Source: Oscillospiraceae bacterium
GTDB taxonomy: Bacteria; Bacillota; Clostridia; Oscillospirales; CAG-272
NCBI GenBank assembly: GCA_015063855.1
Contig: SVTI01000002.1
Coordinates: 1-55,971 of the forward strand
Length of the DNA: 55,971 nt
Direction of reading: 5' to 3'
Part shown: piece by piece, positions 2,274 through 28,467 of the stretch
Layout of the letters: each line of letters opens with the position of its first letter
Position numbering within the stretch: position 1 is the first letter of the stretch
Program-made: the position numbers and the translations under genes
The notes under the pieces: generated by a model
Seen by the model: only the letters and a program-made list of their open reading frames with translations
The model's database searches: none
Told to the model about the DNA's origin: nothing

Positions 2274-4247
2274 TTACTGTTCTTTCAACGCATTTATCTG
2301 ATCACGGATGATAGCAGCCTTTTCAAATTCAAGAGCGGCGGCAGCTTCGCGCATTTCGGTGTTAAGCTGTTCTATCATAGCGGCCTTCTGTTTTTCGGAG
2401 AGCTTGCGCTCAGGCATCTTCTTTTTCTTCTTGTCGTCCTTTGCACCAAGGTCGATAAGATCACGAACCGCTTTCTGTACACTCTTGGGCTCAATACCGT
2501 GCTCACGGTTATATGCCTCCTGGATCGAACGGCGGCGATTTGTTTCATCAATAGCGGTCTGCATTGCCTTGGTTATCTTCTCTGCATACATGATAACCTT
2601 ACCGTTGACGTTTCGTGCGGCACGACCTATGGTCTGAATAAGGGCGGTCTCGCTGCGCAGCAGACCTTCCTTATCTGCATCAAGTATAGCAACAAGAGAG
2701 ACCTCGGGGATATCAAGACCTTCACGAAGGAGATTGATTCCCACAAGAACATCAAAGTTACCAAGACGAAGATCACGGATGATCTCGGTACGCTCCATTG
2801 TTTCAACATTGTGATGTATATATTTAACCTTGATAAGATTAAGCTCGAGAAATTCGGTTAAATCCTCCGCCATCTTCTTTGTAAGGGTGGTAACAAGAAC
2901 TCGTTCACCTCTTTCGGTTCTGATTCTTATCTCGGAGATAAGATCGTCTATTTGATCCTCCACACCTCTTACCTCAACCTCAGGGTCCAGAAGTCCTGTG
3001 GGACGGATTATCTGCTCAACGGTCTGCTCGGTAGTCTCCTTTTCATAGGGACCGGGGGTAGCACTTACATATATGGTTTGGTTTAATTTATCCTCAAATT
3101 CTTCAAACACAAGGGGACGGTTGTCATAGGCAGAGGGGAGACGGAAACCGTATTCCACCAGATTTTCCTTTCTTGCTCTGTCTCCGCCGCTCATACCTCT
3201 TACCTGGGGCAGAGTAACATGGCTCTCATCCACGAAGAGCAGGAAGTCCTTTGGAAAATAGTCAAGCAGGGTATAGGGAACCGAGTCCGGTTCTCTGCCT
3301 GCAAGCACACGGGAATAGTTCTCAACTCCCGAGCAGTAACCTATCTCACGCATCATCTCAAGATCATAGAGGGTTCTTTCTTCAATTCTCTGAGCCTCTA
3401 TAAGCTTGTTCTGAGATTTGAAGTATTCCACTCTCTCTTCCATTTCTCGCTCAATTTCTTCAAGAGCCTGTTCACGGCGCTCAGGGGAAACCGCATAGTG
3501 AGTTGCGGGGAATATGCAGATATAGGAAACGTCACGGGCAACCTTTCCCGTAACAAGATTAAATTCGGAAATTCGGGTTATTTCATCGTCAAAAAATTCA
3601 ACTCGTATACCCTCGTTATCTCCCGAGGCAGGGAAGACCTCAACCACATCACCGCGAACACGGAATTTATTACGGGTGAAGTTGATGTCATTACGGTCGT
3701 AGTTTATGGCGATAAGGCGGCGGATAAACTCGTCACGGTCCATAATTCCGCCTACCCTTAAGCCTATGAGCATACTGTTATATTCGTTAGGATCACCAAG
3801 AGTATATATGCAGGAAACCGAGGATACTACAATAACGTCCCTTCTTTCAAAAAGGGCAGAGGTGGCGCTGTGACGGAGCTTGTCTATCTCGTCATTAACA
3901 GAGGAGTCCTTCTCGATATAGGTATCCTTGCCGGGGATATATGCTTCAGGCTGATAGTAGTCATAGTAGGAAACAAAGTATTCTACCGCATTATCCGGGA
4001 AAAATTCTTTAAATTCGGAGCAGAGCTGTGCTGCCAAAGTCTTGTTATGAGCTAAAACAAGGGTAGGCTTGTTGGCATTTGCAATTATATTCGCCATGGT
4101 AAAGGTCTTACCCGATCCTGTTACACCAAGCAGTGTTTGTTTCTTTAGCCCTGCTTCTACACCCGCCGAGAGCTTGTCAATAGCTTGCGGCTGGTCACCC
4201 GTTGGCTTGTAGGGTGAAACAAGCTTAAATCTTCTTTCTTCTGCCAT
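2274..4247 (-). CDS. uvrB: excinuclease ABC subunit B
   Basis: 657 aa. Walker [11 protein letters not shown], a DESH box (FVDESHVT), a helicase C-terminal region and a C-terminal UVR domain ([18 protein letters not shown]). GGGGAGG RBS. Confidence 0.97.
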
Positions 4248-4352
4248 TTTATTACCTCCCCGTAAAGATATAATGCCAATAATTCTTTAGAAAACAGTTT
4301 AATCATATTATTATAACATATATATTTTAAAAATAAAAGAGGTTAACAAAAA

Positions 4353-6373: not shown

Positions 6374-6775
6374 ATGAGAAAAATTATTGCATTTGTTTTA
6401 TCCTTTCTTATCTGCGGTCTTACATTTATGAGCTGCTCGACCTTAAAGACAATGAAGCAATCTGTATTAGGTGCAAGCGAGGATGATATTATTGCAGAGG
6501 CAGAGGTTAGCGCAAAGAAAAAGTTTTATGATGAGTGGGGCATAGTAGCCGATGAAATGTCCTCAGAAATCATTTATTCCAATGACGAAAAAAGCATAGT
6601 TGCCGTGAAGTGCCATTCGGATGATTATGTTGGTGATGATCATTGGGCATCTTCGATCGCTATAGTTATAAGCAACAGCAGTGCAATGTGGCTAGGACAG
6701 ACCAATCTTATGCCGGGTGATTATGATTACAGCGAAAATCTTGAAGCATTAAAGTCAACTCTCAGGGTTGAGTGA
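6374..6775 (+). CDS. small lipoprotein, function unknown
   Basis: Start moved to ATG 6374 after a GGAG RBS. Signal peptide with a lipobox (LTFMSC). Confidence 0.7.
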   Translation: MRKIIAFVLSFLICGLTFMSCSTLKTMKQSVLGASEDDIIAEAEVSAKKKFYDEWGIVADEMSSEIIYSNDEKSIVAVKCHSDDYVGDDHWASSIAIVISNSSAMWLGQTNLMPGDYDYSENLEALKSTLRVE

Positions 6776-8428: not shown

Positions 8429-9580
8429 ATGAAAAGAATATTAGTTATATTACTATGTTTAACTATATGTATTTTCGTTCTTGCCGCTTGTTCCAAAACA
8501 AGCACTGATAACAGTTCGATAAAGAATGAAGAAAAGGCTGAAAATAATACTAACGCTTCGGATAGCGAAAAGGTAAGTGACAAAAAGGAAACTGAGAATA
8601 TAGTAGAGGATATAGAAGAAAAAGAGCCGGATCAAATAATCGATTACGGTACATATACCGAAAGTGAATTTAAGAATGAATGGGTAGACTTGATATATGT
8701 TCCCCGTAGTGATTTGATATCGTCTCCCGAAGATGATAGGTTGCTGAATGAAGCAACAGATGATGACTCCAGAAAAACATTAATGGATTATTATTCAGAA
8801 TACGAAAAAGGGAAGGACAAAATAGCAGTATACGTACAGAAGGTCGAAACAGGTACTACAGCTGATGTACTTTTAGCAGAGCTTGTGGCAGATGATATCG
8901 AATATTATATCAGGAATGATGTTACTTATACTGAGTACGATAAGGGCACTTATGAGTTGTGTGGAAAAAGCTATGAGTTTCAAACTACCGATACAATTTC
9001 TCCATATGGCTACACCCTTCATTCTAAAGTGATGCTTCGTATAGCTAACGGTTATGCAATTCTCATTATTGCTCAAGGCGAAGATGAAACTGCAACAGAA
9101 GCTTTACTTAACGAGTTTGTCTCATATAAATCCTTTTATGACAGATTCCCCGGTGAATTGAAGGCGGGAATGAGCTATGATGAAATATCTTCGGTCGTAA
9201 TGTCGCTTTCCGATATAGAAAATAATGAAAATATGGGGCTTATGGCGACAGGAACAATGTCAAACTACGATCTGTGCGGCTTCTATATGACAAGCGGTAT
9301 TTTGAGTATACCTACTCCCATGGTGTCGTTCTTGTTTAATGAAGAGGGTCAAATGTATCAGTATAATATTTATTTCTCCAAAGTAAGATCCTATGATGTT
9401 TATGAGGATGTAAAGGTATATTATAATGAGGCTTTCGGATTTGAGGTTGAGGAGACGATTGAAAGTGATTTCAAGAGTTCAACTTGGTCGGATGAAAAAT
9501 ATGAAGTAATACTTATGAGTAATGAGTCGCAAGGTGAGTATTTCATGAACCTGACGGTTACGAGTAAAGAATATAAATAA
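8429..9580 (+). CDS. lipoprotein, function unknown
   Basis: MKRILVILLCLTICIFVLAAC lipobox when started at ATG 8429. The track start at 8408 lacks an RBS. Confidence 0.65.
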   Translation: MKRILVILLCLTICIFVLAACSKTSTDNSSIKNEEKAENNTNASDSEKVSDKKETENIVEDIEEKEPDQIIDYGTYTESEFKNEWVDLIYVPRSDLISSPEDDRLLNEATDDDSRKTLMDYYSEYEKGKDKIAVYVQKVETGTTADVLLAELVADDIEYYIRNDVTYTEYDKGTYELCGKSYEFQTTDTISPYGYTLHSKVMLRIANGYAILIIAQGEDETATEALLNEFVSYKSFYDRFPGELKAGMSYDEISSVVMSLSDIENNENMGLMATGTMSNYDLCGFYMTSGILSIPTPMVSFLFNEEGQMYQYNIYFSKVRSYDVYEDVKVYYNEAFGFEVEETIESDFKSSTWSDEKYEVILMSNESQGEYFMNLTVTSKEYK

Positions 9581-10327: not shown

Positions 10328-10436
10328 TATATTCCCCCTTTGATCTGTTGATATATATATTATAAGGAATAATTCCGCGATAGTCAATAAAAGTGTTGAT
10401 TTTTATATGAATATATGATTTAATTTAGTTAGAGAA

Positions 10437-10470
10437 TGAAACTTTTTTCTTCATATTCTGCACTTTAAAG
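10437..10470 (+). promoter_or_regulatory. ECF-type promoter candidate (TGAAAC-N17-GCACTTTA) upstream of the sigma gene
   Basis: TGAAAC at 10437-10442 and GCACTTTA at 10460-10467. A homologous motif lies upstream of the paralogous sigma gene at 21624-21655. Confidence 0.5.
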
Positions 10471-10488
10471 AACAAGGTGGTGAAGCGT

Positions 10489-11025
10489 ATGACGGATAGG
10501 GAAAAAATATTCAATCAGATTTACGATAAGACCTACAGAGGAGCTCTTATATATGTTACTGCTAAATGCTCCCATGTTCAGGACATTGAGGACATAATGC
10601 AGGAGATATATACCGAGCTGTATTCTGTGATAACAAGGAAGGGCGGGGAATATATTGCTTTTCCCGAGGCGTTTGTCCTTAAAATAGCAAAGCGCAAGGT
10701 ATACCTGCATTACACCTTGAAGGAACGCATACGCGGGGTATCTCTTAACAGCGAGGATGTATACGAAAGAGAGATGATCGATTCTATTCCCGATGATTTT
10801 GATATAGAGGATGATATTTGTACCAAGGATATGCTTGACGAGATAGGGCGGTATATCCTCTCCCGTTCTGAGATAACCGCAAAAATATTTATGCTCTATT
10901 ATCTGCTTGATCTTAAGATATCGGAAATTGCCGAGCAATTATCGGTCAGCGAATCTTACGTTAAGAATAAGCTTTACCGTACCATAAAGGAGCTTAAAGC
11001 ACGTTACGGAGGTGACTATAAATGA
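10489..11025 (+). CDS. sigma-70-family (ECF-like) RNA polymerase sigma factor, copy 1
   Basis: About 178 aa. Region 2-like DIEDIMQEIYTELY and region 4 HTH ISEIAEQLSVSESYVKNKLYRTIKELK. Start taken at ATG 10489 (MTDREK), matching the paralog N-terminus. Confidence 0.8.
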   Translation: MTDREKIFNQIYDKTYRGALIYVTAKCSHVQDIEDIMQEIYTELYSVITRKGGEYIAFPEAFVLKIAKRKVYLHYTLKERIRGVSLNSEDVYEREMIDSIPDDFDIEDDICTKDMLDEIGRYILSRSEITAKIFMLYYLLDLKISEIAEQLSVSESYVKNKLYRTIKELKARYGGDYK

Positions 11026-12758
11026 AGGGAAAGGAGATCATAAAAAGAGCCTTGGAGGGCAGTATTCCCGACAAGGAATCGCTTCGTCAGGAGTGTCTGT
11101 CCCAAAGAAAGAGGGCTGTATCGGTTAAGAGAGTGATGATCGCCGCAGCCTGTATCCTTCTGCTCTGTACAACCTTTGTCTTGATACCCCTTTTGAAAAA
11201 AGATAATAATAAAAAAGGTTTTGACGGTAATGAAGATATCATTCTTCAAAGTGAAGAACTTGAGAGCATAAGTGAAGATATCACCCCCGACACGCAGGAC
11301 GAATACTATGACCCGGGTGCTATCGGCGGCGGTGAGTCCTCTATATGTCCCATTCACAGCATTGAATATCACGCTATCCCGGGACTCCTTATAGATTATG
11401 TGGATGAACAGGCTTACGAGGAATGGAAGTCACAGCTCCGTGATGAGGAGGGCTGGTATATAAGGGATGAAAACGGATGCTACCCCGGCTTTAATATAGT
11501 TGAGTTCATCAACTCCTTCAACATTCCCGATGAGCTGATAATCGAGTGCTATCCCGGATATTACAACAGCAGCTCCGCCTATTGGAACCTTGATCTGCTC
11601 CTTTCAAGAGATGCAGAGGCATACGAGATATTTGCAAGAAAAACGTCGCTTACAAAGGAGGAAAAAAGGTTATATGAAGACAGAGAAAGGGATGGATCCT
11701 TCAAGCGCAGAGTTCTGGATCTGCTGAAGGAGAAAACCGACGAAGGATCTGTTGCCTATTATAATAAAATAACCTGTAACGGTACGAGGTATCTCCTTGA
11801 AGAGTTTTCTATCCTTGATATGGTGGAGAATTCCTCGCTTACCAAGGAGGATATCGAGTCGGCCTGCGGTGTTGACCGACGTACAGGTGTTCAGTCTGTC
11901 AACTTTGTATATAGATATACCTATAATATAGATCTTCTTTTTGAGGAGAAGGCGGCGCTATATGCTGAAATCGAAAAGCTTGAAGATATTCCGTACGTAC
12001 CGCGTGCAGCACAGATAGATGAGCTTTTGCATATAGGATATAACGGAGAGCTTGCCGTAAAGGGAGAAGCAATTGAAACCGAATACGGAATTTATATTCC
12101 GGAGGGCTTACTGCCGCAGAGCGATGAGGATCTTCCGCTTGAAAAGGATATGATACTATACAAAGGCAGAATATATTGGTATACTGCGACCGTAACCGAG
12201 AGTGAAGAGCATATTATCGATCATGTGAAAAGCACAATCCCGGTCGGTCATACTCACGGCGATATTGAAAAGGGTAAAACGAATTGGGATACGTACAGAT
12301 ATTATCATTTTGCTTCGTCTTCGGTTGGCGACGTTTATCTTCTTGATGACTATGACTCAAGCTTCAGAATAATGTTCAATAATTATTTCGGAGATCCCAA
12401 TACAATGAAGATCTACGAGGCTAACAAAGGACTTGTTCTGGATAAAGGAAGCGACCTGTACGGTGAAAAGGGTTTGAATCTTCAAAAGAATTCCGTTTCA
12501 CTTTCAGTGGGAGAGAAGCTTGCAGATGATTCCATGAAAGAAAGGTTAATTTTAGAGCTTCAGGAGGGTGATTTTGTTCTTGATAACAGTGATGTGTCTG
12601 TTTATCGAAGTATTTCATTAAAGATAAATCTGGACGATCTCTCAAACGTAACTCTTACACTTTACGAAAACGGGTACGTTGAATATTCCGAGATATCGGG
12701 GTATGGGGTATATCTCGAAATTGATAATACTGAGTTTGTGCAAGATTTTTTTGAATGA
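11022..12758 (+). CDS. anti-sigma-like single-pass membrane protein carrying the shared uncharacterised ectodomain plus an extra C-terminal region of about 230 aa
   Basis: ATGA overlap with the sigma gene. Cytoplasmic tail of about 35 aa and a TM helix (VMIAAACILLLCTTFVLIPLL). The ectodomain has the IGGGESSICPIHSIEYHAIP, GCYP and FNIPDELIIECY motifs shared with the proteins at 19995, 21770 and 24407. Confidence 0.7.
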   Translation: MKGKEIIKRALEGSIPDKESLRQECLSQRKRAVSVKRVMIAAACILLLCTTFVLIPLLKKDNNKKGFDGNEDIILQSEELESISEDITPDTQDEYYDPGAIGGGESSICPIHSIEYHAIPGLLIDYVDEQAYEEWKSQLRDEEGWYIRDENGCYPGFNIVEFINSFNIPDELIIECYPGYYNSSSAYWNLDLLLSRDAEAYEIFARKTSLTKEEKRLYEDRERDGSFKRRVLDLLKEKTDEGSVAYYNKITCNGTRYLLEEFSILDMVENSSLTKEDIESACGVDRRTGVQSVNFVYRYTYNIDLLFEEKAALYAEIEKLEDIPYVPRAAQIDELLHIGYNGELAVKGEAIETEYGIYIPEGLLPQSDEDLPLEKDMILYKGRIYWYTATVTESEEHIIDHVKSTIPVGHTHGDIEKGKTNWDTYRYYHFASSSVGDVYLLDDYDSSFRIMFNNYFGDPNTMKIYEANKGLVLDKGSDLYGEKGLNLQKNSVSLSVGEKLADDSMKERLILELQEGDFVLDNSDVSVYRSISLKINLDDLSNVTLTLYENGYVEYSEISGYGVYLEIDNTEFVQDFFE

Positions 12759-19994: not shown

Positions 19995-21071
19995 TTAATA
20001 AGCTACATGGTCATCGCTCTTTTCTCCTACATGGAGCAGAGCATCTGCCATTTTAACCCTTGATTCATAGTAAGGAATCTCAAGATTATCTATCATCTTT
20101 GTTAGGGTCTCTGTATCTCCAAAGAGAAGATCAAGGTTGTATTCGAAACGCTGAATATCACCGTTTTCGTCCTTCTGGTTTGTCGGATTCAGAACCTCTG
20201 CAAATTCATTTTTAGTGATTGATGTGTTAATGACAATATCAATTATAGATACTTCACACCATGGAATTTTTGTGCCGTTATCTGATATACGGTTATAGTA
20301 TTCTATAGTTTTTGCATCTGTTTTTGTTTTTAGTATATCAAACAATCGCTCTTTCAAGTCGCGTTCATTATAAAGCTTTGTTCTGTATATGTTGTATTCC
20401 GGATTACTTCTTGATTCACGGGATATTTTATCGAAACTTTCTGCATCTCTTGCCAAGAGGCTTTCCATATCCCAGTCGCAGTTGTAGAAATCATTTTGAT
20501 ATGCTTCTATTATTACTTCGTCGGGAATATTAAAGTGTTCAACACATTTTAGAATGTCACCCTCAGGATAACAACCGTTTTTATCGCGGACAAGCGCTGT
20601 AGGGTCTACCCACTTCCTGAATTCCTCCTGACCTATATAATTGGTTATTATGCTCGGAAATGCATGGTAATAGTATGTGTGGATCGGGCACAACACATCC
20701 CCGCCACCAATAGGATCAGGCTCTTCATTGTTTGTAGCCGGTACATCTGTTATTTCTTCTGTGATGTTAGGCTCTGTTATATTGTTTGCGGATTCGACTG
20801 CAGGTGCTTTGTTTTCCGTAACTGAGGCTTCTTCTGTTTCAATTATGCTTATGGGTGTGTGCGGAATTTCGGGATCTTTGTGTTGTGACGGCTTGATTAC
20901 AGAGAATGCCGTTAGCAGAGAAAGGGAAAGCATAGTGATAAGGGTAGCGGCAAGCAGAAGGTTTTTTATTCTGCTTTTTGCGGTATTGTGTGCTATACAT
21001 ACAGAATATATTTTTTCTTTGTCGGGAACAAGAGGAGTCAATGCCGAGGATAAAATTTCGTTATGTGTCAT
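19995..21071 (-). CDS. anti-sigma-like single-pass membrane protein with the shared ectodomain (copy 2)
   Basis: ATGA overlap with the sigma gene at 21068. TM helix LLLAATLITMLSLSLLTAFSVI. Motifs IGGGDVLCPIHTYYYHAFP, GCYP, FNIPDEVIIEAY and ADALLHVGEKSDDHVAY. Confidence 0.7.
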   Translation of the reverse strand: MTHNEILSSALTPLVPDKEKIYSVCIAHNTAKSRIKNLLLAATLITMLSLSLLTAFSVIKPSQHKDPEIPHTPISIIETEEASVTENKAPAVESANNITEPNITEEITDVPATNNEEPDPIGGGDVLCPIHTYYYHAFPSIITNYIGQEEFRKWVDPTALVRDKNGCYPEGDILKCVEHFNIPDEVIIEAYQNDFYNCDWDMESLLARDAESFDKISRESRSNPEYNIYRTKLYNERDLKERLFDILKTKTDAKTIEYYNRISDNGTKIPWCEVSIIDIVINTSITKNEFAEVLNPTNQKDENGDIQRFEYNLDLLFGDTETLTKMIDNLEIPYYESRVKMADALLHVGEKSDDHVAY

Positions 21072-21604
21072 TGTTCTTCACCTCTATAGAGATTTTTGAT
21101 TTCTTTTAACGTGCGGTATAGCTTGTTTTTAACATAGGACTCATTGACGCACAGAAGGAGTGCTATTCTTGGTATGGTGAGATTATATGAATAGTAGAGC
21201 AGGAAAATTTTTTGTACGATCAAGGGCTTAGACAGAACGAAGGCTCGTATGGAATCCAAGGCTTCCTTGGTACATATAGCATCCTCTATTATCAGATCAT
21301 CCGGGATAAAATTGATAATTTCCGCATCATTTTCATTAGAAGTATTCAAGGATATACCCTGTATTTTTTCTTTAAGGGAATAATGCTTGTATATTTTGCG
21401 ATTGCTTATCTTGATAACAAGGCGTTCAGGTGCTTGGACATAATCGATTCCCTTGCGTAATAAAGTTCTGTACAGCTCTGTATAGGTTTCTTGCAATATA
21501 TCTTCGATGTCATGAATGTTGGAGCACTTTGATGTTATATGTATAAGGGTGTTTTTGTAGGTCTTATCATAAATATCATTAAAATAATTTGTAATATCTG
21601 ACAT
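21068..21604 (-). CDS. sigma-70-family (ECF-like) sigma factor, copy 2 (paralog of 10489..11025)
   Basis: N-terminus MSDITNYFNDIYDKTYKN aligns with MTDREKIFNQIYDKTYRG. The region 4 motif ESYVKNKLYRT is shared. Confidence 0.8.
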   Translation of the reverse strand: MSDITNYFNDIYDKTYKNTLIHITSKCSNIHDIEDILQETYTELYRTLLRKGIDYVQAPERLVIKISNRKIYKHYSLKEKIQGISLNTSNENDAEIINFIPDDLIIEDAICTKEALDSIRAFVLSKPLIVQKIFLLYYSYNLTIPRIALLLCVNESYVKNKLYRTLKEIKNLYRGEEQ

Positions 21605-21623
21605 GATCTCACCGCCTTCGTTA

Positions 21624-21655
21624 TATAAAGTGCCCCAAAATATGAAAAAGTTTCA
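21624..21655 (-). promoter_or_regulatory. ECF-type promoter candidate (TGAAAC-N16-GCACTTTA) upstream of sigma copy 2
   Basis: The minus strand reads CTGAAACTTTTTCATATTTTGGGGCACTTTATATAACGAAGGCGGTGAGATCATG. It is collinear with 10437-10491. Confidence 0.5.
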
Positions 21656-21721
21656 GTATAAAATTAAAATTTGTCTATAAGTATATGATATATCCGATAT
21701 CTGCAATAATCAAGTGTTATT

Positions 21722-21756
21722 AAAAAAAAGCACCTGCAGGTGTTATCTGCAGGTGC
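21722..21756 (-). terminator. rho-independent terminator of the lipoprotein gene
   Basis: Perfect GCACCTGCAG / CTGCAGGTGC stem followed on the minus strand by an 8-nt T-run. Confidence 0.8.
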
Positions 21757-21769
21757 TTTGGGATTTCTA

Positions 21770-22708
21770 TTAATAAGCTACATGGTCATTGCTCTTTTCT
21801 CCTACATGGAGCAGAGCATCTGCCATTTTGACCCTTGATTCGTATTCGGGGATGTCGAGGTTATTAATTGTATTTGTCATAACGCTTGCATCTCCGAAGA
21901 GAAGATCAAGGTTGTATTCGAAGTAGGGGGTAACAAAATCTTCTCTGTTGTTAGACGTAGCATCTCCAAGTGCGTTTATAAAGTCGTCTTTGGTTAGCGA
22001 AGTGTTTGATATCATATCATATAACGTTATTTCAGAACAAGGAAAATAAGATCCGTTGTTGGTTATAGTATTATAATAATCAACGGTTTTTTTATCTGTT
22101 TTTGTTTTCATGAAATCAAATAATCGAAATTTTAATGATTGTTCTGATGATAATTTTGCAGAAGAATTGGTGGTAATGGAGTTTCTTGCATATCGTTCAA
22201 ATGCTTCGTGATCTCTTTCAAGCAGTGCCTTTATATCCCAGTCCCGATTATAATAATCATTCTGATATGCTTCGATTATTATTTCGTCGGGAACATCAAA
22301 ATATTCTATACAAAGAAGGATATTTCCGTTTGGCCAACAGCCTTCTTCATTGGTTGTAGAATGAGCTTCATTCGACCATTTACGAAAATGTTCTTCTCCT
22401 ATATAATCTTTGATTTCTTTAGGATAACAGTGGTATCCAAAGTTATGAACTTCACATATGCCCGTACCGCCTATTGGCTTAGGATCATTGTTAGTGTCAG
22501 TAGTACCGGGAGTGGGTATCACTTCTTCGGTAATATCAATTTCCGTTTCTGAATCGGGCAAATCGGTGTCTGCGATGTATGAAGTATCCGAACTTTCGGG
22601 TATGTTTACATATTCGTCAGTTTCTTTTTGTGAGCTTTCAGGCTTTGAACAGGATATAAAAGTCGTTAAAACTGAACAAACCAAAAATATTATCAAAGTA
22701 TTTTTCAT
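21770..22708 (-). CDS. lipoprotein consisting only of the shared ectodomain (copy 3, no sigma partner)
   Basis: Signal peptide with a lipobox (TTFISC). The domain is identical over about 180 aa to the ectodomain of 24407..25633. The AGGAGG RBS lies inside the last codons of the upstream M23 gene. Confidence 0.75.
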   Translation of the reverse strand: MKNTLIIFLVCSVLTTFISCSKPESSQKETDEYVNIPESSDTSYIADTDLPDSETEIDITEEVIPTPGTTDTNNDPKPIGGTGICEVHNFGYHCYPKEIKDYIGEEHFRKWSNEAHSTTNEEGCWPNGNILLCIEYFDVPDEIIIEAYQNDYYNRDWDIKALLERDHEAFERYARNSITTNSSAKLSSEQSLKFRLFDFMKTKTDKKTVDYYNTITNNGSYFPCSEITLYDMISNTSLTKDDFINALGDATSNNREDFVTPYFEYNLDLLFGDASVMTNTINNLDIPEYESRVKMADALLHVGEKSNDHVAY

Positions 22709-22710
22709 AA

Positions 22711-24150
22711 TTAACCTCCTACGGGATTTCCGTTGTAATCATAGTCGTGATATGGGGATTGGTATCTTATAAAAGCCAAAGGATCCATATATTCTCTGCT
22801 TGACAGACCATAATCGTCTGTGTTCGATATCGAGAAATGTAAATGATATCCATAGTTAGCGCCGGTATTTCCGACGGTTCCAATTCGCTGTTCTTGCTGC
22901 ACATCAACACCGACATTCACCAATATTGAATTTAAATGCTGATAAATCATAAAGTAGAATTTATCCTTACTATTGTCTTCAGGATCATCATGATAACACG
23001 TCTCTATTTGTATTAAATTCCCACAGGAGCCATATTCATCCGCCATTTTGACTTTTCCTGATGAAACACTATATACCGAAGTCCCTATTGTTCTTGCGAT
23101 ATCTATACCTTGATGATATTCAAGCTGGCTTGCGGTACCGTACCTCCAACCAAAATTTCGGCATTGATTCAAATAATTACGGGTGTTTGTCCATTCCGTC
23201 ATATTGTTGAATCCTGCAATCGGTAAGCTATACCCACCGCCGGTGCCAAGAGCCATTTCGATCGTATTAATGAAGTTGTTACGAGTAAGTGTAGTATTGG
23301 TCAGGCCTTGTCTGTAATTTATGGCAAAGGCATTAGCGGCAAATGCCAGATTGCTTGATGTAGACAAACAAGCTATACCGTAAGTGTTTGTTTTTATAGG
23401 CTGTTCGGGATATTTATCAGCCGGAGCATTTGTGTTTTCGAAATAAATATACACGGTCGCATTTGCAATAGGCGCTCCGCTTGTTGAACGTACATAGAAC
23501 AATATTTCATTTCCGGGGTACTTGTTTATAGCATACATTTTTGAAAGCATTGTTGCACCGCTTGATCTGTCAATGGTACCTGTCGGATCGAAGCTGCCAT
23601 TAGGTTTACCGGTGATTATTTCGGCCTTTGCCAAGGTCATTACAGCAGTCTGAGACCATGAGGCTATTGAAGACTGATCGGTAAAGCTAATATTGGGCTT
23701 GGTTACCGGTATCGTGGCATTGGTTACGTTTAACGCACGGTATACCAAGGTGGCGAATTCCTGACGCGTTATCACCGTGTCGGGACTGAAGAGACCGTTG
23801 CCGGTTCCGTTGGTTATGTTATTATCATATGCCCATTTAATGCTACCCGAGTAATCGGATGAATAGGGAACGTCGGAAAACGGGGTGTCTGCATATTTCG
23901 GAACATTGATGTCAAGCATTCTTCTTATTCCGTCAACCGCTATATCTCTTCTCAATCCGCCGTAAGGGTAAAAGAGGTTGGATTGAGAGTAAAATGCTCC
24001 GTGGTAATAACAAAAGCAAATACTGTCCTCTGCCCAAAAGTTTTCGGGCAGGTCGGTGAATCTGCTGTCTGCGCTTGAGCTGAAGGTCAATACCGCTGAG
24101 AATAAAGCGGTAAAAACAATAACTGCAAATAATATTTTAACTTTCTTCAT
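22711..24150 (-). CDS. secreted SLH-domain M23 (LytM-type) metallopeptidase
   Basis: Signal peptide. SLH repeats (FTDLPENFWAEDS..., FSDVPYSSDYSGSIKWAYDNNITNGTGNGLFSP...). M23 catalytic motifs HQGIDIA (HxxxD) and GYHLHFS (HxH). Confidence 0.85.
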   Translation of the reverse strand: MKKVKILFAVIVFTALFSAVLTFSSSADSRFTDLPENFWAEDSICFCYYHGAFYSQSNLFYPYGGLRRDIAVDGIRRMLDINVPKYADTPFSDVPYSSDYSGSIKWAYDNNITNGTGNGLFSPDTVITRQEFATLVYRALNVTNATIPVTKPNISFTDQSSIASWSQTAVMTLAKAEIITGKPNGSFDPTGTIDRSSGATMLSKMYAINKYPGNEILFYVRSTSGAPIANATVYIYFENTNAPADKYPEQPIKTNTYGIACLSTSSNLAFAANAFAINYRQGLTNTTLTRNNFINTIEMALGTGGGYSLPIAGFNNMTEWTNTRNYLNQCRNFGWRYGTASQLEYHQGIDIARTIGTSVYSVSSGKVKMADEYGSCGNLIQIETCYHDDPEDNSKDKFYFMIYQHLNSILVNVGVDVQQEQRIGTVGNTGANYGYHLHFSISNTDDYGLSSREYMDPLAFIRYQSPYHDYDYNGNPVGG

Positions 24151-24303
24151 TTTCTTCTCCTTTCGAGGTTGTTAAAGTTAATGGTTCTTAAACTTAACGG
24201 ATGAATATACTTCGGAAGGTTTATTGATTTGAAGCTGAAGCTCAAATCGATATTATATTTTCATAACGATTTCCCCCTTTAAAGAGGTTGAATTATTTAC
24301 CTC

Positions 24304-24345
24304 TTCATTACAGTAATGTCACCCAAAACACAAAATAGCAGGTTT
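24304..24345 (-). promoter_or_regulatory. conserved 43-nt motif upstream of the SLH-M23 gene, shared with the sigma copy 3 upstream region
   Basis: 36 of 43 nt are identical to 26231-26273 in the same orientation. It sits just downstream (minus sense) of terminator 24367-24397. Confidence 0.5.
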
Positions 24346-24366
24346 TATATGAAAAAAAAGTAAAAA

Positions 24367-24397
24367 AATCTCATCCCGATTTTTTTGGGATGAGATT
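24367..24397 (-). terminator. rho-independent terminator of the sigma/anti-sigma copy 3 operon
   Basis: AATCTCATCCC / GGGATGAGATT 11-bp stem followed on the minus strand by TTTTTTTAC. Confidence 0.75.
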
Positions 24398-24406
24398 TTA
24401 ATTTAC

Positions 24407-25633
24407 TTACTCCGCTATATGCAATAAGGCATCTGCCATTTTAACCCTTGATTCATAGTAAGGAATCTCAAGATTATCTATCATCTTTGTTAGGGTCTCT
24501 GTATCTCCAAAGAGAAGATCAAGGTTGTATTCGAAGTAGGGGGTAACAAAATCTTCTCTGTTGTTAGACGTAGCATCTCCAAGTGCGTTTATAAAGTCGT
24601 CTTTGGTTAGCGAAGTGTTTGATATCATATCATATAACGTTATTTCAGAACAAGGAAAATAAGATCCGTTGTTGGTTATAGTATTATAATAATCAACGGT
24701 TTTTTTATCTGTTTTTGTTTTCATGAAATCAAATAATCGAAATTTTAATGATTGTTCTGATGATAATTTTGCAGAAGAATTGGTGGTAATGGAGTTTCTT
24801 GCATATCGTTCAAATGCTTCGTGATCTCTTTCAAGCAGTGCCTTTATATCCCAGTCCCGATTATAATAATCATTCTGATATGCTTCGATTATTATTTCGT
24901 CGGGAACATCAAAATATTCTATACAAAGAAGGATATTTCCGTTTGGCCAACAGCCTTCTTCATTGGTTGTAGAATGAGCTTCATTCGACCATTTACGAAA
25001 ATGTTCTTCTCCTATATAATCTTTGATTTCTTTAGGATAACAGTGGTATCCGAAGTTATGAACCTCACAGATACCGGTTCCGCCTATTGGCTTAGGATCA
25101 TCATTGCTTGTAACCGGTACATCGGTTATTGGTTCTGTAATATACGGTTCTGTTATAATGTTTTCTTCTGTTATAATACTATCTGTTTCGTTATTTAATG
25201 TATTGGAGTCGGTACTTGGAGCGTCGGTATCGGGAGACGGTTCCTTTTTTGTAATATCAATTGGGTCTATCGGAATATCTGTATTTTTATCCGAGGTATT
25301 TAACACCGAAAGGGTAGATACCGTTAATGCACTCATCATTACAAGAACTGCGGCTATAAGTAATACACGTTTAAGGGTAATTGACTTTGATTTTTTATTA
25401 TTTATTATATTTCTTGCATTTTTCTCCGCCTCCTTATCAAGTGTGGTTATGTCTTCACCATTTAATATGAGAAGTGCTTCTACCGCTTCGTCTATAAGCT
25501 CGTAATTTCTGTATTCATAGGGGAGAGACTCTTCTTTACTTAATATCTCTTCTATCGCCTCGGTAAGCTCGGCATCGTTACCTACAGGCTTTTTTTCTTC
25601 ATATTCACTGAGCTTCTGCTCAAGTTCGCTCAT
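24407..25633 (-). CDS. anti-sigma-like single-pass membrane protein with the shared ectodomain (copy 4, mosaic)
   Basis: Acidic cytoplasmic N-terminus of about 90 aa, unrelated to copies 1 and 2. TM helix VLLIAAVLVMMSALTVSTLSVL. The ectodomain is identical to the lipoprotein 21770..22708. The C-terminal tail is identical to 19995..21071. Confidence 0.75.
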   Translation of the reverse strand: MSELEQKLSEYEEKKPVGNDAELTEAIEEILSKEESLPYEYRNYELIDEAVEALLILNGEDITTLDKEAEKNARNIINNKKSKSITLKRVLLIAAVLVMMSALTVSTLSVLNTSDKNTDIPIDPIDITKKEPSPDTDAPSTDSNTLNNETDSIITEENIITEPYITEPITDVPVTSNDDPKPIGGTGICEVHNFGYHCYPKEIKDYIGEEHFRKWSNEAHSTTNEEGCWPNGNILLCIEYFDVPDEIIIEAYQNDYYNRDWDIKALLERDHEAFERYARNSITTNSSAKLSSEQSLKFRLFDFMKTKTDKKTVDYYNTITNNGSYFPCSEITLYDMISNTSLTKDDFINALGDATSNNREDFVTPYFEYNLDLLFGDTETLTKMIDNLEIPYYESRVKMADALLHIAE

Positions 25634-25650
25634 TTTTGAATGCTCCTTAT

Positions 25651-26160
25651 TTAATCGTTTATGATACTCCTGACGGCATTTTCGACCTTTGCTAATCTTA
25701 GCCGCAGTGTGGAATAGGGGATATGTTTTATATCCGCTATTTCCTTTAGTGTTTTTTCTTCTATATATCTAAGGACAAAAAGCTCTTTTAGATCTTTCGT
25801 AAGCATATCGGCTATTTCATCCATTCGTTTTTCAATATTCTTTACGAAATACTCATCAACACTACTTGCCTCGGATAATTCACCTCTTTCCTTTGTTTCC
25901 TCAAGGGAAAGGGTCCGGGCGTAATAACGGTTGTGTTTTCGCAGAGAATTTTTTATGCACATATCCGCCACGCGGTACAGATAGGCTCTCAGACTCTCAC
26001 CCCGCTCAACCTTGTCCCATTTTTCGTATAGAATACGGAAAATATCGTTTTGAGTTTCTTCGGTCAATTCCTTGTTACAGCGGAGCTTGAGATAACAGTA
26101 TCTGTACAGCGGCTTTGAATACTGCATGACTATCGCTTCATATTCTTTGATGTCAAACAT
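25651..26160 (-). CDS. ECF-type sigma-70-family sigma factor, copy 3 (a different lineage from copies 1 and 2)
   Basis: Region 2 (YRYCYLKL..., DIFRILYEKW) and region 4 HTH (LKEIADIKHIPYSTLRLRLAKV). AGAGGT RBS. Confidence 0.85.
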   Translation of the reverse strand: MFDIKEYEAIVMQYSKPLYRYCYLKLRCNKELTEETQNDIFRILYEKWDKVERGESLRAYLYRVADMCIKNSLRKHNRYYARTLSLEETKERGELSEASSVDEYFVKNIEKRMDEIADMLTKDLKELFVLRYIEEKTLKEIADIKHIPYSTLRLRLAKVENAVRSIIND

Positions 26161-26230
26161 TTCTTTACCTCTGTATTATGGCCATAATAACAGTTTACCT
26201 CGAAAGAAGGAGTATGTCAATCCCCTTGCC

Positions 26231-26274
26231 TTCATAACAGTAATGTCGCGGAAAACGTAAAATAGCAGCTTTTT
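26231..26274 (-). promoter_or_regulatory. conserved 43-nt motif upstream of sigma copy 3 (see 24304-24345)
   Basis: TTCATAACAGTAATGTCGCGGAAAACGTAAAATAGCAGCTTTT on plus, about 70 nt upstream of the sigma start codon. Confidence 0.5.
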
Positions 26275-26285
26275 GATAAAAAATA

Positions 26286-26314
26286 TTGAAAGATTTTTTG
26301 AAATATGATAAAAT
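26286..26314 (+). promoter_or_regulatory. sigma-70-type promoter candidate for the SLH gene pair
   Basis: TTGAAA, a 17-nt spacer, then TGaTAAAAT. Confidence 0.5.
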
Positions 26315-26343
26315 TAATCTATAAAAGCTGTTTGGAGGCAAAA

Positions 26344-28467
26344 ATGAAAAGATTTATTAGTGTTATGATATCTATTGTCATGCTTGTTTCGATGATACCC
26401 TTCTCGGTATCTGCCGAGACGGTACTTTCCTATACCGACATAGGTGACGGCAGAGCCAGACTGGATTCGGTAGAGATAGTTGAGGGCGTGGCTAAGTGTG
26501 ATGTGAAGCTTGAGGGACTCACGGTGGTTGAGCTTGGTGAAGAGATATGTGCCTATACCTCTGTCAAGAGTGTTGAGCTTCCCGATACCCTTGAGCGAAT
26601 AGGTTATTCTGCCTTTATAGGCTGTGATTCTCTCGAATCTGTAGAGATCCCCTTGACGGTGAAATTTATCGAGACCTTTGCCTTTACCGAGTGCTACTCT
26701 CTTAAGAGTATAGTCATCCCCGAGACGGTAGAATATCTCGGAGAGTGGGCATTTGATTTCGAAGACATTGAGGTTAAGGTGTACAAGGACAGCTATGCAG
26801 AAAAATACTGTATAGAAAATAACTATCCCTATATCCTTGCAGACGAGGGCTGCTCTCATAAGAATACCGAGAACGTAACTGCAGAATACGCAACCTGTAC
26901 ATATAGCGGCGAGGCTGCCGAGAGATGTACCGATTGCGGTAAGCTGACAGAGAGAACCGAGCTTTCGCCTCTCGGTCATGATCTTGCGGCATGGAGCGTG
27001 GACAAAGACGGCAGATGCCGTGAATGTAAGCGCTGCGGTAACGTTTTTACCGATTTTGAAAGAAGCTATGGTGAGATGCCCTTTACTGATATCAAGGCAG
27101 GAAGCTGGTACTATGATTCTGTAGGCTTTTGCTATGCAAATTCTCTTGTAAACGGAACAACAGCCACTACCTTCGATCCCGATACCAACACCACCAGAGC
27201 AATGGTGGTACAGATCCTTTCAAAGTATGCGGGTGCAGACCTTACAAGCTATAAGGAAAGCGGATTCAAGGACGTTAAGATTTCCTCATGGTACGGTCCC
27301 GCAGTAGCATGGGCGAAGGAAAGCGGAGTTGTAAACGGTAATGACAAGGGTGAATTCATGCCTGATGTTAACGTAAACCGTGAACAGCTTACCGTTATTA
27401 TGAAGAATTTTGCCGATTACATGGGTTATGGCTATCCCGAAAGTGATGTTGACATTACAAAGGCATTTTCTGACGGAAATAAGACCGCATCCTGGGCAAA
27501 AACAGCTATGGAATGGGCAGTTTCTCTTGAGATCGTCAACGGTGTTGGCGGCGGCAAGCTCAACCCCAAGGGTCTTGCGGGAAGGAATCAGATAGTTAAG
27601 ATAATCAAGTATTTTGCCGATATCTTTGAGCTGGAGACAGTTTACGGCTACGACAGAGTGGTTGTATTTATGATAGACGGAGCGGGCGATTTCTTTAAGG
27701 ATGCCAACACCTCCAATATAGACAGGATATTCGATCTCGGCGTTACCTCCAAGGCAAAGGAGCCCGTTAACTGTATGAGCGAGAGAGCCTCTATACTTAC
27801 GGGTACCGATCCTTCGGTTCACTCTCTCTATCACAGAGAGGATGCGGCAAGGGATGTTTATAATGAGCGTAATGCCGTCAAGACCTTCCTCGGTGAGGTC
27901 AAAGAAGCATATCCCGACAAGGAGGTTGCCTGCTTTGCATCGAGCCTCGAGATATCTCAGCTTGTCGAGGAGGAGGGCGGTGTTTATGCGCCTGTTGATG
28001 AAAGCTATGTGGACGACGGTATAACCGAAATGCTTGTAAAGGATGGGGGTTATCTTGACACCAATGATCCATCCTTACTGCTTGTTGAGATGCGTCAGGT
28101 GCTTCAGGGCGGTGTTCACTTCGAAGGCGGTTTTGGAAGCCGCGACTACATGATGCAGCTTTCTCTTACCGACGGTTACATTGGCAGAATATATAATAAG
28201 TATGAAGAATTGGGCAGAAACGAGAATACTCTCTATATCCTCACCACCGATCACGGCGGAGTTGTCGGCGGTACCTCCTACGCGGGTTCAAGCGAGGATG
28301 AGATAAATTCCTTCTTTGCCATAGGCGGTAAGGGCGTAAATAAGAACGCAGATCTTACAGGCTTCTGCAATACCGATGTTTACGGAATAATTCTTGACGT
28401 TTTCGGCATTGACAGACCTTACACTTCGGTATCTGAAAAATACAATGATCTTTTTATCGGTGAATAA
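26344..28467 (+). CDS. secreted multidomain protein: BspA-type leucine-rich repeats, Cys-rich linker, 3 SLH repeats and an alkaline-phosphatase-superfamily (sulfatase/phosphodiesterase-like) domain
   Basis: Start at ATG 26344 (MKRFISVMISIVMLVSMIPFSVSA). LRR_5-like repeats (IGYSAFIGCDSLESVEIP...). SLH motifs (FTDIKAGSWYYDS, FKDVKISSWYGPAV, FSDGNKTASWAKTA). C-terminal FMIDGAGD, CMSERASILTG and TTDHGG. Confidence 0.75.
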   Translation: MKRFISVMISIVMLVSMIPFSVSAETVLSYTDIGDGRARLDSVEIVEGVAKCDVKLEGLTVVELGEEICAYTSVKSVELPDTLERIGYSAFIGCDSLESVEIPLTVKFIETFAFTECYSLKSIVIPETVEYLGEWAFDFEDIEVKVYKDSYAEKYCIENNYPYILADEGCSHKNTENVTAEYATCTYSGEAAERCTDCGKLTERTELSPLGHDLAAWSVDKDGRCRECKRCGNVFTDFERSYGEMPFTDIKAGSWYYDSVGFCYANSLVNGTTATTFDPDTNTTRAMVVQILSKYAGADLTSYKESGFKDVKISSWYGPAVAWAKESGVVNGNDKGEFMPDVNVNREQLTVIMKNFADYMGYGYPESDVDITKAFSDGNKTASWAKTAMEWAVSLEIVNGVGGGKLNPKGLAGRNQIVKIIKYFADIFELETVYGYDRVVVFMIDGAGDFFKDANTSNIDRIFDLGVTSKAKEPVNCMSERASILTGTDPSVHSLYHREDAARDVYNERNAVKTFLGEVKEAYPDKEVACFASSLEISQLVEEEGGVYAPVDESYVDDGITEMLVKDGGYLDTNDPSLLLVEMRQVLQGGVHFEGGFGSRDYMMQLSLTDGYIGRIYNKYEELGRNENTLYILTTDHGGVVGGTSYAGSSEDEINSFFAIGGKGVNKNADLTGFCNTDVYGIILDVFGIDRPYTSVSEKYNDLFIGE

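Follow-up and report, generated by a model that had tools for sequence, protein, structure and literature searches.

A conserved gene pair of SLH-anchored M23 peptidase and lipoprotein beside an anti-sigma-like sensor with the same domain in an Oscillospiraceae bacterium

Why should a bacterium encode, directly behind a cell wall peptidase, a lipoprotein whose outer domain repeats the ectodomain of the anti-sigma-like protein next door? This arrangement is found in an Oscillospiraceae bacterium (assembly GCA_015063855.1), in a stretch of 55,971 nucleotides (nt) covering positions 1 to 55,971 of the forward strand of contig SVTI01000002.1; the whole of this stretch is called the window below. 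The initial annotation of the locus proposed that the system exports a replica of its own sensor, which would titrate the ligand of the sensor or act as a co-receptor. The comparisons presented in this paper point to a different answer. They indicate an old and conserved two-gene module of enzyme and lipoprotein in Oscillospiraceae-type gut bacteria, in which the lipoprotein is probably first of all a dedicated partner of the M23 peptidase. The complete reading, a sigma-controlled module of endopeptidase and partner whose sensor uses the domain of the partner, is given about an even chance. The genes concerned, and the junction between the last two, are as follows (aa, amino acids; ECF, extracytoplasmic function).

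25651 to 26160, minus strand: ECF sigma factor "sigma 3", 169 aa, with Sigma70_r2 and Sigma70_r4_2 and a TIGR02937 match
24407 to 25633, minus strand: anti-sigma-like protein "anti-sigma 3", 408 aa, single-pass, named from gene context and topology
22711 to 24150, minus strand: SLH-anchored M23 peptidoglycan endopeptidase, 479 aa, predicted from Pfam, NCBIfam and PDB sequence matches
21770 to 22708, minus strand: predicted lipoprotein, 312 aa, with a lipobox and a structure model, and no Pfam or NCBIfam family
22706 to 22720, minus strand: coupling junction AGGAGG-T-TAA-TT-ATG, read in the sequence and the same at the related locus L006

The 479-aa product consists of a signal peptide, SLH repeats (about residues 30-210), a middle domain and a catalytic M23 domain (about residues 330-460). 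In Pfam, Peptidase_M23 (PF01551) reaches 76.1 bits (cut-off 28.7) and SLH (PF00395) reaches 87.3 bits over 2 scored stretches (cut-off 20.8), which places the product in the M23 family and among the SLH surface proteins. A sequence search of the PDB matched the SLH region to the S-layer protein Sap, and gave matches of the M23 product to ShyA, lysostaphin, LytM, zoocin A and TagE. The residues of the HxxxD motif (H346-Q-G-I-D350), H405 and the HxH motif (H436-L-H438) are all intact, and they are invariant across the 6 orthologues aligned. Judged by these residues, the product is an active-type enzyme, whereas LytM factors such as EnvC and NlpD are degenerate, and its SLH repeats are predicted to hold the endopeptidase on the producer's own wall.

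The 312-aa product is assigned as a lipoprotein by its N-terminal signal peptide, which reads MKNTLIIFLVCSVLTTFIS-C20 with the lipobox FIS-C20; relatives carry L/V/I-x-S/A-C at the same site. A disordered acidic tether of about 60 residues (21 to about 78), within a region (17-82) whose predicted local distance difference test score (pLDDT) is below 50 in AlphaFold2, leads to a domain that is called X here (about residues 83-304). The model of X, made by AlphaFold2 with a 12-sequence family alignment, is all-alpha, and the block means of pLDDT are mostly 86-98.

Close relatives of the lipoprotein are few. A word-indexed search of 5.8 billion proteins returned only 10, all from ruminant or faecal metagenomes, and one of them comes from a Ruminococcaceae/Oscillospiraceae metagenome-assembled genome. 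A search for loci by peptide patterns, which were too specific, gave 2 loci each in genome and metagenome contigs. Among the 12 single-locus look-ups on which the co-occurrence of the two genes rests, six (the window, L006, L001, L004/L005, L011 and L013), representing at least four diverged lineages, have the SLH-M23 gene adjoining a gene for an X lipoprotein. Across the related loci, the identity of the M23 protein to the window enzyme falls from 70% through 53% and 39% to 36%. The arrangements of the related loci are listed here.

L006: sigma gene (cut by the contig end), anti-sigma P0010 with an X ectodomain, SLH-M23, lipoprotein P0008, with a 2-nt spacer
L001 (L008 has the same arrangement): SLH-M23, lipoA (P0004), lipoB
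L004 and L005 (one sample, overlapping ends): lipoA, SLH-M23, lipoB
L011: SLH-M23, then lipoprotein P0019
L013 (the same as L014): SLH-M23, then the distant lipoprotein P0024, 155 bits against the family profile

At L001, 6.5 kb of upstream and 8 kb of downstream sequence contain no called sigma gene, and none was called in the flanks shown of L004/L005 and L013. Because the pair has been kept across deep divergence and through varying gene order, the functional link between the M23 enzyme and the lipoprotein appears to be independent of the sigma pair, and we hold with good confidence that the lipoprotein is functionally tied to the peptidase. Moreover, since this link is seen without a sigma pair in the flanks available, the anti-sigma sensor appears to have been copied from the partner of the peptidase, and not the reverse. 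In one sub-lineage, formed by the window genome and L006, the module stands directly downstream of an ECF sigma/anti-sigma pair with a paralogous X sensor. The four-gene order of sigma, anti-sigma, M23 and lipoprotein recurs in one other genome, that of L006, whose sigma factor is 59% and whose M23 protein is about 70-71% identical to that of the window.

Two minor observations belong to these loci. The strains of L001 and L004/L005 are closely related (lipoA 95% identical) and differ in order, with M23, lipoA and lipoB at L001 6563-9883 and lipoA, M23 and lipoB across L004 7890-9626 and L005 1-1593, a local rearrangement within the module. At L013, the tblastn match of the window M23 protein (2913-4298) extends about 345 nt further upstream than the 346-aa gene called there (3258-4298), and a TAG codon in the same frame lies between 2913 and the called gene; the SLH part may be interrupted or the start miscalled.

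The two genes of the window are joined closely. Reading along the minus strand, AGGAGG (22720-22715) is followed by T, the M23 stop codon TAA (22713-22711), TT and the lipoprotein ATG (22708-22706). The spacer between the genes is 2 nt with no overlap, the Shine-Dalgarno sequence lies inside the last M23 codons, and 6 nt separate its end from the ATG; the positions first annotated for the stop codon and the start codon proved exact when the sequence was reread. The 25-nt junction CCCGTAGGAGGTTAATTATGAAAAA is identical in the window and L006, although the M23 proteins are only about 70% identical. Terminators were detected on both sides of the pair.

About 24355 to 24399, minus strand: intrinsic terminator after anti-sigma 3, AAATCTCATCCC-loop-GGGATGAGATTT and a T-run (hairpin detected at 24365-24399)
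21727 to 21759, minus strand: intrinsic terminator 3' of the lipoprotein gene, 13-bp stem and a T-run (hairpin detection)

Because of these flanking terminators, the M23-lipoprotein pair is taken to form a transcription unit of its own. The proposal that the two genes are co-transcribed and probably co-translated therefore stands as a prediction, in the form of co-transcription with termination-reinitiation coupling. In gut metatranscriptomes, a 203-nt contig matches the lipoprotein-specific 5' part of the lipoprotein gene at 100% identity (X15), and a 175-nt contig lies inside the M23 gene (X20). DNA carry-over is possible for both, and the two short contigs, one per gene, weakly suggest that both genes of the operon are expressed.

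The likeness between lipoprotein and sensor was borne out and is longer than the roughly 180 residues first reported: lipoprotein residues 75-273 equal anti-sigma-3 residues 179-377, which is 199 aa at 100%. At the DNA level, 594 of 602 nt match, and the identical protein stretch contains a perfect tract, attributed here to conversion, in two copies.

21897 to 22438, unstranded: perfect 542-nt conversion tract, lipoprotein copy, with its twin in anti-sigma 3
24510 to 25051, unstranded: perfect 542-nt conversion tract, anti-sigma-3 copy, with its twin in the lipoprotein gene

All seven of the seven differences within the identical protein stretch are synonymous, and six of them fall in codons 81-90, just outside the perfect tract. 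Beyond the tract, 107 nt at the 3' end of anti-sigma 3 are 100% identical to anti-sigma 2 (19995-21071), and the 3' end of the lipoprotein gene is 86% identical to anti-sigma 2; the result is a three-way mosaic, with conversion tracts that link paralogues lying next to each other. At L006, identity between the lipoprotein and the ectodomain of the anti-sigma protein is only 41%. In view of this divergence in L006 and the mosaic in the window, the 199-aa identity is the product of a recent 542-nt gene conversion, and not a conserved design feature. It can be seen that a paralogous lipoprotein is part of the conserved module and a replica-grade copy is not; the proposed export of a replica of the system's own sensor is not supported as a conserved feature. 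The conversion tract left both reading frames intact, and both copies are constrained, since the seven differences are synonymous and the ratio of nonsynonymous to synonymous substitution rates (dN/dS) of the orthologues is 0.27-0.34. As for the direction of the conversion, pairwise identity slightly favours a lipoprotein-type origin, though not decisively, with 58% to lipoA of L001 and 47-48% to the anti-sigma protein of L006.

Further variants of the mosaic were seen in public data. P0013 and P0014, in the 90% cluster of the window lipoprotein, are identical to the window protein up to residue 273 and then continue with an anti-sigma-3- or anti-sigma-2-type C-terminus. In run X2, a contig at window positions 24429-25101 has an anti-sigma-type 3' end threaded onto the lipoprotein 5' part, and in run X7, a contig joins 24382 to 21801; the gene upstream of M23 in a related strain carries a 3' end of the lipoprotein type. 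The variants either arose by natural recombination within this mosaic or are chimeras made when the repeat was assembled.

Domain X itself appears to represent an undescribed and uncharacterised family. Scans of Pfam and NCBIfam gave no family for it, structure searches of the PDB and BFVD gave no fold match (best PDB Foldseek E-value 5.1), and a sequence-profile search gave no PDB match (best E-value 0.25). In the Pfam, NCBIfam and PDB searches, no similarity was found to IseA-type inhibitors (PF16800), to the NlpI/LbcA tetratricopeptide repeat (TPR) adaptors or to the RsiV ectodomain. A profile search of 1.84 billion cluster representatives collected 336 clusters at E<=1e-3 and 154 at E<=1e-10. 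Sorted by a simple and crude rule, the best 150 representatives include 76 lipoprotein-like and 35 N-in single-pass proteins, and lipoproteins are thus the commonest apparent carriers of X, at about half. The hallmark of the family is G-G-x(2-4)-C-x2-H-x3-[YF]-H ... W ... C, whose residues are retained in most representatives: C85 in 139 of 145, H88 in 140 of 147, H93 in 144 of 148, W111 in 146 of 148 and C124 in 121 of 141. The Cys/His motif is probably a Cys2His2 metal site. One candidate member, P0150, was rejected, as it looks like a low-complexity false match.

Apart from lipoproteins, X is found in several kinds of membrane protein. Single-pass proteins with X follow ECF sigma genes directly at three places in the window and also at L006, L012 and L015, and the anti-sigma-like proteins P0023 and P0026 carry X domains in tandem. 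Two BlaR1/Peptidase_M56-type transducers, P0102 (1096 aa) and P0134 (2370 aa), end in X, and P0134, as a single case, additionally contains an IseA endopeptidase-inhibitor domain. A Pfam scan of 20 longer X relatives found no fusion to M23 or another hydrolase, just the two BlaR1/M56 fusions and the one IseA-like domain. Such a distribution is that expected of a recurrent extracytoplasmic recognition module. A locus with a BlaR1-X fusion, L018, sits on a short contig.

The sigma pair next to the module can be assigned in part from models and in part from position. Sigma 3 scores 53.7 bits with TIGR02937 (sigma70-ECF, cut-off 42.9) and has both Sigma70_r2 and Sigma70_r4_2 in Pfam, which makes it an ECF sigma factor. 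Anti-sigma 3 lies directly downstream of the sigma gene and is an N-in single-pass protein with an extracytoplasmic C-terminal domain, as in the class I context of anti-sigma factors; its designation as an anti-sigma factor is drawn from this context. Its parts are a cytoplasmic N-terminus of about 85 aa, a transmembrane segment (about residues 87-111), an acidic Thr/Pro-rich linker and the C-terminal X ectodomain (about residues 179-405). Upstream of the sigma and M23 genes, the following elements were found.

26230 to 26268, minus strand: 39-nt motif copy 1, a putative promoter or operator of the sigma-3 type, about 70 nt before the ATG of sigma 3
24303 to 24341, minus strand: 39-nt motif copy 2, about 153 nt upstream of the M23 ATG
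24253 to 24278, minus strand: conserved leader element, a strong Shine-Dalgarno sequence (AGGGGGAA) with the 3-codon mini-ORF ATG-AAA-ATA-TAA (1 match in the window, 0 expected)

The 39-nt motif has the pattern CTGCTATTTT-NN-GTTTT-NNNN-GACATTACTGTWATGAAG, with CTGCTATTTT and GACATTAC as elements within the putative promoter. Exactly 2 matches occur in the window, where shuffles predict 0, and L006 has the motif too, between the anti-sigma terminator and M23. Because the M23 operon has the same upstream motif as the sigma operon, it is a candidate output of sigma 3; the motif supports, as its simplest explanation, an autoregulated ECF promoter together with a promoter of the regulon. Control of the M23 operon by sigma 3, suspected from the start, is plausible in the light of the motif upstream of both genes and its conservation in L006, and sigma-3 dependence of the M23-lipoprotein operon seems to us rather likely.

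The leader element has a consensus of about 33 nt, RGGGGRGGAAAYMGTT-ATG-AAA-AWA-TAA, with a mini-ORF that encodes MKI or MKK. It is present in five leaders of genes for M23 or X lipoproteins, whether a sigma pair lies nearby or not, and its positions in the relatives are given here. An Rfam scan of 21500-26400 found no Rfam family in the 153-nt M23 leader.

L006, about 1700 to 1730: leader element
L001, about 6515 to 6545 and about 8950 to 8985: leader elements
L004, about 8835 to 8870: leader element

These findings can be combined into the following mechanism. Domain X would recognise either the M23 enzyme itself or a wall feature that this enzyme cleaves or produces. On its tether, the lipoprotein would position, restrain or activate the peptidase near the membrane, and translational coupling would supply the two proteins at about 1:1. 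By the same recognition, the anti-sigma protein would read the state of enzyme and wall and tune transcription of the operon, and the long tethers on lipoprotein and sensor would let X reach the wall layer where the SLH-bound enzyme lies. Sensor and lipoprotein very likely share a ligand, because one was overwritten with the sequence of the other and both are under purifying selection. A shared ligand is also the precondition of the decoy idea. Competition of the lipoprotein for the ligand may damp the signal, as a by-product of shared specificity; a decoy effect is thus possible, but it would be a result of this sharing and not what the lipoprotein exists for. That the lipoprotein measurably modulates sigma-3 signalling is nevertheless doubtful. 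A bolder version, to which we give little credence, makes X a dedicated binder of M23: the lipoprotein would be a membrane-proximal inhibitor or governor, the anti-sigma protein would count uncaptured peptidase, and recurrent conversion between inhibitor and sensor would keep their specificities matched as the enzyme evolves. If true, this would be an extracytoplasmic partner-titration circuit for autolysin homeostasis.

Several results weigh against the reading of a sigma-controlled enzyme-partner module. The X lipoproteins at L002, L009 and L010 have no adjacent M23 gene, and the link is not universal in the family. For the N-terminal 117 aa of anti-sigma 3, no anti-sigma model was found, and no Pfam or PDB sequence match even at E=10. 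Motif copy 2 contains a palindrome, CATTAC-T-GTAATG (24310-24322, minus strand), which is perfect there and differs by one mismatch in the copies upstream of sigma 3 and in L006; it could suit an operator for another dimeric regulator instead of a sigma-3 promoter. Among the metatranscriptome contigs, no RNA read or contig bridges the M23 and lipoprotein genes. In the ectodomain tree of 19 sequences, the node relevant to the conversion donor is a polytomy. Finally, the contact between X and the M23 enzyme is a hypothetical one, as is the ligand of X.

Of the other explanations, the one nearest to the initial annotation has the lipoprotein act mainly on signalling, as a sigma-3-induced free copy of the sensor that serves as a ligand decoy or as an RseB/MucB-like co-receptor or shield, with the M23 enzyme as generator of the ligand or as a co-regulated output. 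We consider it unlikely, although much of what has been described is compatible with it: with 199 identical aa the two domains must share specificity in the window genome, the operon has the sigma-3 upstream motif, a paralogous lipoprotein is retained in the L006 module, and the tandem X domains of P0023 and P0026 fit a domain that works in pairs. What tells against it is that the M23-lipoprotein pair occurs at several loci without a sigma pair in the flanks shown, so that signalling cannot have been the ancestral job of the lipoprotein, and that sensor and lipoprotein have diverged so far in L006. Also, the model of the tandem protein P0023 (pLDDT 59.8, predicted template modelling score 0.48) is too poor to show how its domains pack. 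A still less probable explanation is paralogy without cross-talk, in which X is a generic wall-binding or structural module, the lipoprotein, the M23 peptidase and the anti-sigma factors have separate jobs, and the conversion was incidental and without regulatory meaning. Exchange does look proximity-driven, as tracts also join anti-sigma 2 to anti-sigma 3 and to the lipoprotein 3' end, public variants of the lipoprotein have other 3' ends, and the family is large and consists mostly of stand-alone lipoproteins. However, the lipoprotein has stayed a neighbour of SLH-M23 in at least four diverged lineages, two genomes have an identical coupling junction, the M23 and sigma operons have an upstream motif in common, and the differences within the identical stretch are synonymous only, all of which speaks against this explanation.

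The tract could further be an artefact of assembly, a collapsed or mis-threaded repeat in a metagenome that hides genes which are really more different; the contig is of metagenome type, coverage in the best runs is only about 4-8x, and the chimera-like P0013, P0014 and X2 contig could be graph artefacts. In run X3, however, the tract forms a separate 542-nt contig that is broken exactly at both boundaries and has a depth of 8.3 against 4.1-5.1 in the flanks, about the twofold depth expected for two identical copies, though X3 may be one of the source samples of the window assembly and in that case is not fully independent. On either side, the flanking sequence is specific to each gene and in frame. 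The repeat is not a collapsed assembly, and an artefactual identity is very improbable. As for a bacteriocin with its immunity protein in place of an autolysin with its regulator, this is less likely, since the SLH repeats would anchor the enzyme on the producer's own wall and no hallmarks of export or immunity were seen.

Known systems give partial parallels to the favoured module of peptidase, partner and related sensor. In Bacillus subtilis, the anti-sigma factor of the sigma-I/RsgI pair reports the state of the wall through a long extracytoplasmic disordered region, and the pair raises the endopeptidase LytE (PMC9732909). The window system would resemble it as a homeostatic sigma control of a wall endopeptidase (PMC9732909). 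It differs in that sigma 3 is of the ECF type, the sensor ends in the folded X domain and not in a disordered region alone, the output is M23 and not NlpC/P60, and RsgI/LytE have no partner lipoprotein built on the domain of the sensor. In the sigma-V/RsiV system, an ECF anti-sigma factor is the direct receptor of the wall hydrolase lysozyme (PMC4183432, PMC5014341). This is a precedent for one of the two proposed ligand options, direct binding of the hydrolase by the sensor; RsiV differs in that it senses a foreign enzyme and induces wall modification, and its ectodomain is unrelated to X (no Pfam match). We know of no co-expressed free paralogue of the RsiV ectodomain. The sigma-I/RsgI systems of Clostridium thermocellum have ectodomains with carbohydrate-binding (CBM) or PA14 modules (PMC4711584, PMC6852018). 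There too the sensor module is used by secreted proteins of the regulon, and several paralogous sigma/anti-sigma pairs occur per genome, but those modules bind plant polysaccharides and serve a cellulosome regulon, whereas the window module combines an unknown fold with a wall peptidase.

Other parallels concern the lipoprotein. NlpI-Prc acts on MepS. In another Gram-negative system, LbcA-CtpA acts on MepM and other hydrolases (PMC6050968). A helical lipoprotein as dedicated partner that governs endopeptidases, M23 enzymes included, is a functional resemblance only: NlpI and LbcA belong to the TPR proteins and act together with a C-terminal processing protease, while X has no TPR fold match and the operon has no gene for such a protease. 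RseB and MucB are periplasmic partners of the anti-sigma factors RseA and MucA. They show that signalling at the anti-sigma ectodomain can be modulated by an exported protein whose gene neighbours a sigma/anti-sigma pair, but RseB is not a paralogue of the RseA ectodomain, sits in the sigma operon and has no link to a hydrolase. IseA (YoeB, PF16800), which is small and exported, binds DL-endopeptidases of the wall and inhibits them; its connection with X is the occurrence of both domains in one BlaR1-type protein, P0134, and X itself is unlike PF16800. None of the systems compared is homologous to X or joins a hydrolase-linked lipoprotein with an anti-sigma sensor of the same domain.

The control of wall-cutting enzymes in Gram-positive bacteria is only partly understood, and to our knowledge very few dedicated protein partners of M23 endopeptidases have been described outside Proteobacteria. 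The conserved pair of SLH-M23 and X-lipoprotein genes offers a testable case of a predicted M23 partner. If X binds the enzyme or a wall product, the locus would be a compact circuit in which sensor and effector partner use one recognition module, one that could be rebuilt in a laboratory host, and the gene conversion would be a natural experiment in which the domains of sensor and lipoprotein proved interchangeable. If X binds neither, what is seen would be an ordinary ECF-controlled wall-hydrolase operon with a locally recombining family of paralogues.

The window also holds other members of these families. The anti-sigma-like copy 1 (11022-12758, plus strand) has an extra C-terminal domain of about 230 aa after X; this extra domain is common to P0020 and P0022 and has no Pfam match. 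Sigma 2 and sigma 1, proteins that are 55% identical, have a common upstream motif (21605-21660, minus strand, and 10420-10476, plus strand) that reads GAAACTTTTT...CATATT...GCACTTTA.A.AAC, with an AAC-type -35 element as in many ECF promoters. This motif suggests a second type of autoregulated sigma factor in the window.

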